Shown: positions 23,798 through 26,741, counted from the first letter of the stretch. The stretch: 32,000 bases of DNA from Idiomarina loihiensis L2TR (GCF_000008465.1 NC_006512.1:2550001-2582000); one strand, 5' to 3'. The notes: generated by a model from the letters alone, not told the origin. Program-made: numbers and translations.

Positions 23798-25003
23798 GTG
23801 GAAATACCCAGCATGCTCGCTATCGTGGCTGCACTGTGGGTTGTTCTGGTGATAGCCGGCGCTTTTGAGGCCGTTCGCCATTGGGCACTTGTCCGTAAAA
23901 TTCCAGTGCGAGTCCATGTAAATGGTACTCGGGGAAAAACCAGCGTTACCCGGTTAATTGCGGCAGGATTACGCAGTGGTGGTAAACGCATTTGTGCTAA
24001 AACAACTGGTTCTGCAGCAGCTATTACCGACCCGGATGGTCGCGAATTTCCTATTTACCGAATAAGCGGTGCAAATATTATTGAACAAATGCGCACACTC
24101 AAAAGAATGGCAGCATTAAAGCCTGAAATTGTGGTTATGGAATGTATGGCACTGCAGCCTCAGTATCAGTCTTTGAGTGAATTGCGAATGGTTCGCTCAA
24201 CTGTTGGTGTTATTACCAATGCCCGTGCCGACCATTTAGATGTTATGGGCCCCGGTGAGAACGATGTCGCCTTAGCTCTGGCAGGTAGCACCCCACTAAA
24301 AGGCGACTTATTCACCGCCGAACGCGACTTACTGGATGTGTTTAAACATTCATGTAACGACCGTAAAAGTGAACTGCATGGCGTAACCGAGGACGAAGTT
24401 AACGCTATTACCGATGACACCATGAAGCGTTTCCGTTACGCAGAGCACGCCGAAAATGTTGCTTTAGCTCTGAATGTCTGCCAGCACCTTGGTGTTGACC
24501 GGGAGAAAGCTCTGGATGGCATGGTTGCATTAGAGCCGGAAGCGGGTGCCATGCAGGTTCTTCACGTTAACTACTTCAAGCGCGAAATTGTATTCGTCAA
24601 CGCCTTTGCAGCCAATGACCCTGAGTCTACAGGACGCATTTGGGAAAATATGCTGGAAAAACATGGCGAAGAGCGACGTAAAATTGTTTTGATCAACTGC
24701 AGGGCTGACCGCCCCCACCGCTCTCAGCAAATGGCCGAAGACATCGTTAAATGGAGTCCCGCAGATAAATACCTGTTAATGGGCTCAGGAACCTTCATTT
24801 TCGTCCGTAATGCCGTGAAATACGGCCTTGACCCCGAAAAGCTACTTGTTATGGAAAATGCTGAGATGACCGAAATTACCGAAACTATTTTAGAAGAATC
24901 CGGCAGCAGCGCATTAGTTGTCGGTATGTGCAACATTCACGGAGGTGGCGAAGAAGTCGCTCGTTTCTTCCAGAACCGGGCAATCAAGGAGGAAGATTTA
25001 TGA
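23798..25003 (+). CDS. pgsB: Poly-gamma-glutamate synthase PgsB/CapB (Mur-ligase-like amide ligase)
   Basis: The GTG start has an AGGAGG Shine-Dalgarno 6 nt upstream. An N-terminal TM helix is followed by VRVHVNGTRGKTSVTRL (P-loop), ECMA..P.YQ, DHLDVMGP, PGAM, VN.FAANDP.ST, NCRADR..R.QQ and NIHG. The product is collinear by eye with B. subtilis PgsB. Confidence 0.9.
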   Translation: MEIPSMLAIVAALWVVLVIAGAFEAVRHWALVRKIPVRVHVNGTRGKTSVTRLIAAGLRSGGKRICAKTTGSAAAITDPDGREFPIYRISGANIIEQMRTLKRMAALKPEIVVMECMALQPQYQSLSELRMVRSTVGVITNARADHLDVMGPGENDVALALAGSTPLKGDLFTAERDLLDVFKHSCNDRKSELHGVTEDEVNAITDDTMKRFRYAEHAENVALALNVCQHLGVDREKALDGMVALEPEAGAMQVLHVNYFKREIVFVNAFAANDPESTGRIWENMLEKHGEERRKIVLINCRADRPHRSQQMAEDIVKWSPADKYLLMGSGTFIFVRNAVKYGLDPEKLLVMENAEMTEITETILEESGSSALVVGMCNIHGGGEEVARFFQNRAIKEEDL

Positions 25004-25575
25004 TTGCATTAAACATTCTTGCCGTTGCCATTGGTGTCGGTTTATTTTTTACTTTGTTACTCACACAAACATTAGGTTTAGCCGCCGGCGGCTTGGTTGT
25101 TCCGGGTTATGTTGCATTGCAACTGACTGATCCTCTAAGCTTGGCTATCACGCTTGTTGCGGCGCTTATTACCTACCTAATTGTCAGAGTTATTGCCAGC
25201 TTCGCTATTATTTATGGGCGTCGCCAAACCATTATCATGATTCTTACCGGTTATCTCATTGCCGGCTTGATGGATTTATTCCTTGGTAACATTGTTAACT
25301 GGGTAGATTTGCAAATGATAGCAGGCGGTGGTGATGCACAGGCTCAAGTTGCCACTCTTGAATCTAGCTTTATGATGTCGATTATGGAAAGTAGCATCGT
25401 CGGCTACATTATTCCCGGGCTTATCGCTATTTGGTTTGATCGGCAAGGCGTACTGCAGACCTTATGCGGACTCGCAGTAACTGCGGTACTGGTCCGCTTG
25501 GCACTTATCATCATTATGCCGGAATCATTACAAATGTACGAAGCAAGCCAAGCATTTCAGATGCCAGGCTGGTAA
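25000..25575 (+). CDS. pgsC: Poly-gamma-glutamate synthase membrane subunit PgsC/CapC
   Basis: The ATG overlaps the pgsB stop (ATGA). PgsC hallmarks are present: AGGLVVPGYVAL, IYGRRQ and YIIPGLIA.W..RQG. The upstream 24 codons of the track ORF are rejected. Confidence 0.85.
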   Translation: MIALNILAVAIGVGLFFTLLLTQTLGLAAGGLVVPGYVALQLTDPLSLAITLVAALITYLIVRVIASFAIIYGRRQTIIMILTGYLIAGLMDLFLGNIVNWVDLQMIAGGGDAQAQVATLESSFMMSIMESSIVGYIIPGLIAIWFDRQGVLQTLCGLAVTAVLVRLALIIIMPESLQMYEASQAFQMPGW

Positions 25576-25589
25576 CAGGAGGACGAATC

Positions 25590-26741
25590 ATGAGTAGTTT
25601 TACAAAGATTTATTGGCGTTCGTCGGGCGTACCAACCTGGGGACTTATTTTTCTTATCGTACTGTCAGTAATCGTTATGGTTTCTGCGGAAAATATAAAA
25701 CAACGCGATCCCGTCGTTGATGACAATTACGCAACCATGGTTAATGCGTCAAAAATAATGCGTGAAGGTATGCAGGTTCTTAAACCGTTGCGCGCAAAAC
25801 TGGCTCCAATTAACCCGGAGTTCGACCCCCAACGCTCTGGCATGGTTGGTTTGGAAAACAGTATTGTTACCACTAACCATGGTAGTCGCGAATCCAAACA
25901 AACCACGGTTAACCCTAATTGGGCAGCGGTCGCGGTCAAATTAATGGCAGATGCTGGTGTGCAGGAAGGAGATTTAGTTGCAGTTACGGTATCAGGCTCC
26001 TTTCCGGCAATGAACCTGGCCGTCTATTCAGCTATCGAAGCGATGGGAGCAGAAGCGATTATTATCGCTTCCGCATCATCCTCGCAGTGGGGCGGAAACG
26101 TACCCAACTTTCTATGGCTTGATATGGAGCGAGAACTCCGCGAAGCCGGCGTACTCAGTTCAAAACCCGTTTACGCTTCTATTGGAGGTATTGAAGATCG
26201 GGGAATTGGTATTCCCGAAGAAGGCATTACCTCAATACGAAATACAATAGAAAGAGCCGGTATCAATTTTATTGATCCTGCAAGCTACCAGGAAGCCGTC
26301 GCTGACCGTATTGCCATATTTCGTGAATATTCAGCTGACCGTCAATACAAAGCCTTCATAAATGTTGGTGGTGGCGCAACTATAGTAGGCCCTCCTGGTA
26401 TTGATGATATGTTCAAGTCAGGTCTTCAGAGGGACGCTCCTTCACGAGCTTTTGCTGTCGACACCATGATGGGCTATTTCCTGCAAGAAGATATTCCGGG
26501 TATTCACTTTAGTGGCATTAAAGATATGGCCACACGACATGGCCTTCCGTTAATGCCACAAGAAGTTGTGCCCGTTGGCAATGGCGGTATCTATTCAGCA
26601 ACCGTTTATAACCGCTGGTTAGCACTTGGTTTAGGCCTTGGTTTATTCGCCATGACCTGGCTTATCGTCCGCTCTGCACGCATCACTAGCTTGTGGCGCC
26701 GAACCGGCGAAAGCGGTAAGAGCACGAAACCGATGGTTTAA
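25590..26741 (+). CDS. Uncharacterised two-TM protein co-transcribed with pgsBC, probably the 'poly-gamma-glutamate system protein' family; not PgsA/CapA
   Basis: The ATG has an AGGAGGA Shine-Dalgarno in the 14-nt gap after pgsC. It has N-terminal (WGLIFLIVLSVIVMVSA) and C-terminal (WLALGLGLGLFAMTWLIV) TM helices flanking a soluble domain of about 330 aa. I saw no metallophosphatase-like CapA motifs. Confidence 0.6.
   Translation: MSSFTKIYWRSSGVPTWGLIFLIVLSVIVMVSAENIKQRDPVVDDNYATMVNASKIMREGMQVLKPLRAKLAPINPEFDPQRSGMVGLENSIVTTNHGSRESKQTTVNPNWAAVAVKLMADAGVQEGDLVAVTVSGSFPAMNLAVYSAIEAMGAEAIIIASASSSQWGGNVPNFLWLDMERELREAGVLSSKPVYASIGGIEDRGIGIPEEGITSIRNTIERAGINFIDPASYQEAVADRIAIFREYSADRQYKAFINVGGGATIVGPPGIDDMFKSGLQRDAPSRAFAVDTMMGYFLQEDIPGIHFSGIKDMATRHGLPLMPQEVVPVGNGGIYSATVYNRWLALGLGLGLFAMTWLIVRSARITSLWRRTGESGKSTKPMV

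Follow-up and report, generated by a model that had tools for sequence, protein, structure and literature searches.

How a poly-gamma-glutamate (PGA) synthase could work when the slot usually held by PgsA is taken by an unrelated membrane protein is the question raised by a locus in Idiomarina loihiensis L2TR. The locus lies at positions 23798–26741 of a 32-kb stretch of DNA (GCF_000008465.1, NC_006512.1:2550001–2582000; hereafter the window, with positions counted from its first nucleotide), where genes for PgsB and PgsC are followed by a third gene, here called pgsW. We find that this is a real three-gene operon, predicted to direct the making of PGA, and that its third gene belongs to a family which accompanies pgsB and pgsC across distant phyla. 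The reading we favor, at a probability of roughly 60%, is that PgsW acts as the extracytoplasmic third subunit of the PgsBC synthase on the outer face of the inner membrane, as a non-homologous stand-in for PgsA.

The three genes lie on the forward strand and are tightly packed. The first, pgsB (23798–25003), starts with GTG and encodes 401 amino acids; an AGGAGG Shine–Dalgarno motif, read from the sequence, stands at 23786–23791, 6 nt upstream of this start, and an in-frame ATG at 23813 offers an alternative. Its product scored 534 bits against the NCBIfam hidden Markov model (HMM) TIGR04012 (cut-off 223), also matched Pfam Mur_ligase_M (PF08245), was 36% identical to CapB of Bacillus anthracis, and carries a hydrophobic N-terminal membrane anchor at residues ~5–23, all of which is consistent with a Mur-ligase-type ATP-dependent PGA synthase. 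The second gene, pgsC (25000–25575, ATG start), overlaps the TGA stop of pgsB in an ATGA at 25000–25003 and encodes 191 amino acids that scored 112.6 bits against NCBIfam TIGR04011 (cut-off 96) and matched Pfam Caps_synth_CapC (PF14102) at E = 2e-31. Six hydrophobic windows, two of them overlapping (39–57 and 53–71), suggest a polytopic membrane subunit. PgsC is longer than the 148-residue CapC of Bacillus because of an insertion: its residues 11–166 align to a model of 132 positions, which gives ~25–40 additional residues relative to Bacillus CapC. The tblastn match to PgsC in Leptospira is ~23–24 residues shorter than the aligned query span, and the Leptospira protein probably lacks most of this insertion. 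After a spacing of 14 nt, which includes a second AGGAGG (25577–25582, 7 nt upstream of the ATG, again read from the sequence), pgsW extends from 25590 to 26741 and encodes 383 amino acids. A first-pass annotation of the window had given the same open reading frame (ORF) positions, overlap, and Shine–Dalgarno-containing gap, and had likewise named the first two products PgsB and PgsC.

The third product scored 359 bits against TIGR04332, “poly-gamma-glutamate system protein” (cut-off 100, E = 1.9e-107), covering positions 2–306 of the 307 in the model, and had no match in Pfam. A protein of Idiomarina sp. ST20R2A10 with 99% identity to it, and another of I. loihiensis with 94%, already bear the name poly-gamma-glutamate system protein, and the label pgsW comes from RefSeq, where it is attached to a homologue (BLASTP E = 4e-29) that follows pgsB and pgsC on a Cetobacterium somerae replicon. 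In score, in operon slot after pgsB–pgsC, and in two-anchor topology, the window protein shows no material difference from this TIGR04332/pgsW family, and judged by sequence it is an ordinary member of a catalogued family rather than an orphan. With 1,118 clusters at 50% identity that reach E ≤ 1e-3, the family is large. Its named members come from Idiomarinaceae (Idiomarina, Pseudidiomarina, Aliidiomarina), Natronospira, Wenzhouxiangella, Rhodothalassium, and Legionellaceae, and further named members come from Leptospira, Rhodopirellula, Polyangiaceae, Marinimicrobia, Aerophobetes, Fusobacterium, Cetobacterium, and Clostridium cochlearium. The C. cochlearium proteins (P0359/P0360) have the two-anchor layout of the window protein and their host is a monoderm Firmicute, so the family is not an adaptation specific to diderms.

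The name of TIGR04332 records genomic association only and carries no activity, and to this extent the first-pass annotation was right to say that the third family is annotated only by association; a literature search found nothing relevant on TIGR04332, pgsW, or Idiomarina pgsB. Its description of the locus as non-canonical and essentially unexplored has to be given up, since the family is curated, the Idiomarina proteins were already named, and the pgsB–pgsC–pgsW order recurs in nearly all loci compared, as set out below. Capsule surveys that treat CapA as accessory, the genetics of Francisella capBCA, the PGA of Fusobacterium nucleatum, and the C. cochlearium PgsW also speak against that description.

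Several homologues depart from the common PgsW layout. Four of them (P0181, P0202, P0225, and P0234), which fall into four separate 50%-identity clusters, are longer, with one more membrane helix and, at the C-terminus, a beta-rich domain that reaches ~270 residues, is truncated in P0234, and has no Pfam match. In P0189, the PgsW domain lacks the second anchor and is joined to a Peptidase_C26 domain (gamma-glutamyl hydrolase family); this joining was seen only once and might reflect read-through between neighboring genes. One further homologue contains a Cys-rich insert.

To evaluate how firmly pgsW is tied to pgsB and pgsC, we compared 80 fetched loci of PgsW relatives, with 10-kb flanks, alongside the window (81 sources). 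In 80 of the 81, pgsB, pgsC, and pgsW followed one another in this order on the same strand, separated by short gaps or overlapping slightly, and the single exception ends at a contig edge. These sources cover Idiomarinaceae, Wenzhouxiangellaceae, Rhodothalassium, Myxococcota and delta-proteobacterial metagenome-assembled genomes (MAGs), Cellvibrionales, Spirochaetales, and Leptospira. PgsW identity to the window protein rises and falls with that of PgsB (Spearman 0.95) and of PgsC (0.94), and this co-divergence points to inheritance as a unit. The ATGA overlap and the 14-nt Shine–Dalgarno-containing gap in the window, along with a 4-nt overlap of pgsC and pgsW in Cetobacterium, argue for translational coupling. 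When ORFs flanking the operon were clustered across 41 distant loci, only pgsB, pgsC, and pgsW were common to them; a TonB_C/Sel1 gene, represented by a Wenzhouxiangella MAG, follows pgsW in 7 of these 41, and no outer-membrane export component was conserved beside the operon in diderm hosts. In C. somerae (locus L082, 50–7457), a ggt gene and a succinylglutamate-desuccinylase-like gene stand just upstream of pgsB–pgsC–pgsW on the same strand, which suggests a combined synthesis and turnover cluster.

The same loci were searched for the genes that accompany pgsB and pgsC elsewhere, the scope of the pgsA search being the 32-kb window and the 10-kb flanks of the other loci. Window ORFs of at least 110 amino acids were scanned for protein families, leaving out five that lie within or overlap longer annotated ORFs. 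They include SpoT, Gmk, a BCCT transporter, a TonB-dependent receptor, a RimK-like ligase, a phosphodiesterase, and an HlyD–RbbA–YhhJ group, and none of them matched the PGA_cap, GGT, or NlpC/P60 families. As tblastn queries, CapA, CapD, and CapE from B. anthracis and GGT from Cetobacterium returned nothing in the window, and CapA, CapD, and GGT matched none of the 81 sources, flanks included. For CapE, the best match across loci had E = 0.27, a search whose sensitivity is low for a 47-residue peptide. Since no significant CapE match was found and a terminator-like hairpin begins 11 nt past the pgsW stop, we see no sign of a PgsE/CapE gene after the third gene. The earlier statement that the 32 kb hold no CapA, CapE, CapD/GGT, or PgdS-type gene is thus borne out by the family scan and by tblastn.

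The predicted structure of PgsW fits an extracytoplasmic role. Hydrophobicity places anchors at residues ~13–31 and 344–362, and the AlphaFold model (mean predicted local distance difference test [pLDDT] 88.6, predicted template modeling score [pTM] 0.84) shows a first transmembrane (TM) helix at 16–35, a long helix at 41–71, an alpha/beta domain at ~72–340, and a second TM helix at 342–370. Both anchors are near-universal across the family. Among 88 homologues, the N- and C-terminal tails carry net flanking charges of +3 and +2, compared with ~+1 and +0.3 on the domain side, and this positive-inside bias predicts that both tails are cytoplasmic with the domain outside. Conservation extends to the tails: the N-terminal one has a YWR motif, and the C-terminal one is basic and ends in KPMV in close relatives. 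In an alignment of 90 sequences at 25–81% identity, G87, S137, P139, G168, and G260 are invariant, and D79, P80, T94, G98, K103, P109, N142, S161, S165, N170, D178, G199, G200, D203, R240, N258, and G261 are near-invariant. Five invariant residues over such a range of identity argue for a specific site, not a passive spacer. Most of the highly conserved residues lie in Gly/Ser-rich loops (SGSFP, SSxWGAN, GGxxDRG, and NVGGG) that come after predicted beta-strands, an arrangement suggesting, from sequence order rather than from model coordinates, a single ligand-binding or catalytic crevice. A Foldseek search of the model against PDB and BFVD returned nothing at E ≤ 1e-3; the weak matches were generic alpha/beta/alpha sandwiches (ANL N-terminal subdomains, pyridoxal-phosphate fold type I, and methyltransferases) with TM-scores ≤ 0.22. 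PDB sequences searched with two PgsW family profiles likewise gave no credible match, and to our knowledge no protein of this family has a solved structure.

Taken together, the linkage, the coupling, the predicted topology, and the absence of CapA lead us to place PgsW where PgsA would otherwise stand, and the locus may then be understood as a PgsB–PgsC–PgsW synthase/translocase, a PgsA-less form of the PGA synthase. The amide-ligase chemistry of PgsB and the partner role of PgsC are established for those families. Tethered to the membrane, PgsB would activate the C-terminal gamma-carboxyl with ATP and add glutamate at the cytoplasmic face, and the polytopic PgsC would form with it the catalytic and translocating core. 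PgsW, held by two helices with its tails in the cytoplasm, would present its ~270-residue alpha/beta domain outside the inner membrane, where this domain could receive the emerging polyanionic chain and hold it or hand it on, in the place occupied in Bacillus by the unrelated metallophosphatase-like PgsA/CapA. The role of Bacillus PgsA is itself only a model. The domain may bind the chain alone, or it may also cut or transfer it. Two observations connect PgsW to gamma-glutamyl chemistry, namely the C26 domain joined to it in P0189 and the ggt gene beside the Cetobacterium operon. A link to a real producer comes from F. nucleatum, a published source of PGA, since Fusobacterium and Cetobacterium carry PgsW. 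The proposal of the first-pass annotation that the third gene replaces PgsA accordingly fits all findings here, and such a replacement is something we infer rather than observe.

Several points weigh against this reading. We know of no experiment that assigns an activity to any PgsW protein, and a pgsA copy elsewhere in the Idiomarina genome is possible. The invariant serine, together with the near-invariant lysine and aspartates, could equally fit a hydrolase or a transferase. Francisella, the one well-studied apparent bearer of the pgsBCW architecture, has never been shown to make PGA, and neither the Francisella nor the F. nucleatum proteins were among the family matches listed in our database searches and cluster look-up. 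Finally, a PgsC–PgsW fusion (P0197), considered as Rosetta-stone support, had to be set aside: its residues 96–156 look out of frame and are followed by a normal MKTLYWRP start, so that the fusion is most likely a frameshift artefact and unusable as support.

The rival that survives best is that PgsW is a periplasmic processing enzyme, a membrane-anchored gamma-glutamyl hydrolase or transpeptidase analogous to CapD or PgdS whose task would be to trim, release, or anchor the chain, and that PgsB and PgsC polymerize and export the chain by themselves. Ser137 lies in the SGSFP loop right after a beta-strand, and with K103, D178, D203, S161, S165, N170, and R240 it forms a residue pattern compatible with a Ser–Lys or Ser–Asp catalytic site. 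A processing function would otherwise be missing locally, since neither the window nor the 80 related loci hold a CapD, GGT, or PgdS gene, and capsule surveys describe CapB and CapC as the mandatory core with CapA as an accessory (PMC5542703). However, PgsW has no conserved histidine, none of the 90 members matched a Pfam peptidase at E ≤ 10, and no hydrolase was among the Foldseek matches listed. The C26 domain of P0189 and the ggt gene of Cetobacterium would also be superfluous if the hydrolase were PgsW, and strict 1:1:1 linkage with translational coupling is more typical of a complex subunit. We therefore regard a dedicated processing enzyme as unlikely, if still a serious competitor.

A more speculative and somewhat less probable idea is that the PgsW domain represents a fold without a solved relative whose gamma-glutamyl-chain activity, binding or transfer, has gone unrecognized and adapts PgsBC to PgsA-less envelopes. 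If this were true, the product in diderms might be a periplasmic or envelope-attached oligo-gamma-glutamate and not a classical capsule; this would account for the attenuation of Francisella cap mutants despite undetectable PGA.

Doubtful to a still greater degree is a rival in which the nature of the product itself changes, with PgsBCW making another gamma-glutamyl compound, for instance oligo-gamma-glutamate on an envelope or periplasmic acceptor set by PgsW, instead of a free high-molecular-weight PGA capsule. In Francisella, capBCA mutants show strong attenuation while PGA goes undetected, and the O-antigen capsule is independent of capB and capC. The operon conserves no outer-membrane export component in diderms, with HlyD–RbbA–YhhJ confined to close Idiomarina loci, and the crevice-like conserved loops of PgsW could bind an acceptor. 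Against this, PgsB and PgsC score as equivalogs of PGA synthase components, and F. nucleatum, whose family has pgsBCW members, is described as producing and secreting PGA. That Francisella shares the pgsBCW architecture is judged from a product name, and failure to detect PGA in broth is weak negative evidence.

The last rival, that gene 3 is a highly diverged CapA/PgsA and the locus a canonical pgsBCA, can be dismissed as extremely improbable, for although gene 3 resembles CapA in operon position, in size (383 versus 411 amino acids), and in placing a large extracytoplasmic domain after an N-terminal anchor, BLASTP against CapA of B. anthracis pXO2 gave E = 3.2, Pfam PGA_cap was matched by none of the 90 family members even at E ≤ 10 (nor was any other Pfam family matched consistently), the PgsW family HMM gave CapA 0.5 bits, hhalign of PgsW with CapA returned a probability of 0.2% with the membrane helix alone aligned, no metallophosphatase was among the 50 best-ranked Foldseek PDB matches listed for the model, and NCBI curates CapA and PgsW as separate families, all in agreement with the earlier view that the third protein is unrelated to CapA/PgsA.

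With a PgsA-less synthase as the preferred reading, the remaining features of the window concern the borders and neighbors of the operon. The terminator-like hairpin noted above (26753–26775, forward strand) combines a 10-bp stem with a 3-nt loop (free energy −13.7 kcal/mol, z-score −2.6). A terminator had earlier been claimed at 26753–26776; the hairpin is there, and a simple terminator scan missed it because its U-run lies mostly within the stem, so that it is best described as terminator-like and as the putative terminator of the pgs operon. Upstream, a sigma-70-like match (TTAATA-16-TATAAT, 10 of 12 positions matched) lies at 23622–23649 on the forward strand, inside the last 73 nt of a divergent DUF4199 membrane protein ORF (23200–23694, reverse strand) and ~46 nt upstream of the 103-nt intergenic gap (23695–23797). 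The regional count of such sites equals the shuffle expectation, and this match is only a candidate promoter. Conservation beside pgsB is confined to the eight closest Idiomarina loci in which the DUF4199 gene was detected (L001–L005 and L007–L009).

Downstream of the hairpin, genes for an HlyD-family adaptor, RbbA, and a YhhJ-like ABC-2 permease occupy 26853–31753. We considered this group as an export route and rejected it: it follows pgsW only in the window and in four close Idiomarina loci (L008, L010, L013, and L015), and it is missing from L001, whose pgs genes are 99–100% identical to those of the window; it is therefore not part of the pgs system. Its presence or absence marks a variable junction directly past the operon. 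Approximately 5 kb upstream of pgsB, at 17944–20121 on the reverse strand, a RimK-family ATP-grasp ligase gene adjoins an amino-acid permease gene. The ligase scored 69.6 bits against TIGR00768, below the cut-off of 143.4, and represents a second glutamate-ligase-like enzyme near pgs that is syntenic in 17 Idiomarina loci.

Relative to the Bacillus PgsBCA(E)/CapBCADE systems, the window thus shares homologous PgsB and PgsC and, in the same slot, a membrane-anchored third protein with a large extracytoplasmic domain. It differs in that this third protein bears no relation to CapA and is anchored at the C-terminus as well, in the lack of CapE, CapD, and PgdS, and in the insertion in PgsC. PgsA-less PGA loci have been recognized in capsule surveys (PMC5542703), and the third partner varies among them and their like. 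For instance, the pgsBC loci of Streptomyces and Chroococcidiopsis resemble the window in having a pgsB–pgsC core without an annotated capA (within 6-kb flanks), whereas their third partner is not PgsW: in Streptomyces (L083, 5947–8862), pgsB–pgsC is followed by an NlpC/P60 protein and a GT39 glycosyltransferase, and in Chroococcidiopsis (L084, 5911–11093), pgsB is followed by a 333-residue PgsC with two CapC stretches, a hypothetical protein, and an HlyD-family protein.

Among Gram-negative bacteria, F. nucleatum is a published PGA producer (Candela et al. 2009, Can J Microbiol 55:627). Fusobacteriaceae share pgsB–pgsC–pgsW with the window but have a shorter PgsW (~319 amino acids), with 30% identity over 189 residues to the window protein. 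Gram-negative clusters reportedly consist of three genes, the third of which is said to be kept among Gram-negatives, unlike the third and fourth genes of Gram-positives. A parallel within the gammaproteobacteria may be the capBCA locus of Francisella tularensis (FTT0805–0807), also a three-gene cap locus, where the likeness of the third protein is drawn from its RefSeq name alone: “CapA”, FTT0807, is entered there as poly-gamma-glutamate system protein (PMC5362203). Francisella requires this locus for virulence and for growth inside cells, and live vaccine strain (LVS) delta-capB vaccine candidates are built on it. The genetics of the locus have been under study for years, yet PGA has gone undetected. 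FTT0807 CapA has been purified as an inner-membrane protein and characterized biophysically (Martin-Garcia 2014). On the strength of the product name, the CapA of this virulence and vaccine locus appears to be a PgsW family member. That CapA is said to comprise 403 amino acids, with two TM helices and a large hydrophilic domain. The two settings differ, the Francisella genes being a virulence locus of a pathogen and Idiomarina a free-living marine organism.

Overall, the Idiomarina locus is a standard member, annotated before this work, of a catalogued system whose norm is the three-gene arrangement, and its genomic novelty is small; the question it carries lies one level down, in the biochemical role and fold class of PgsW. 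Being non-pathogenic and easily grown, and having a compact operon, Idiomarina could serve to ask what PgsBCW makes and what PgsW does.

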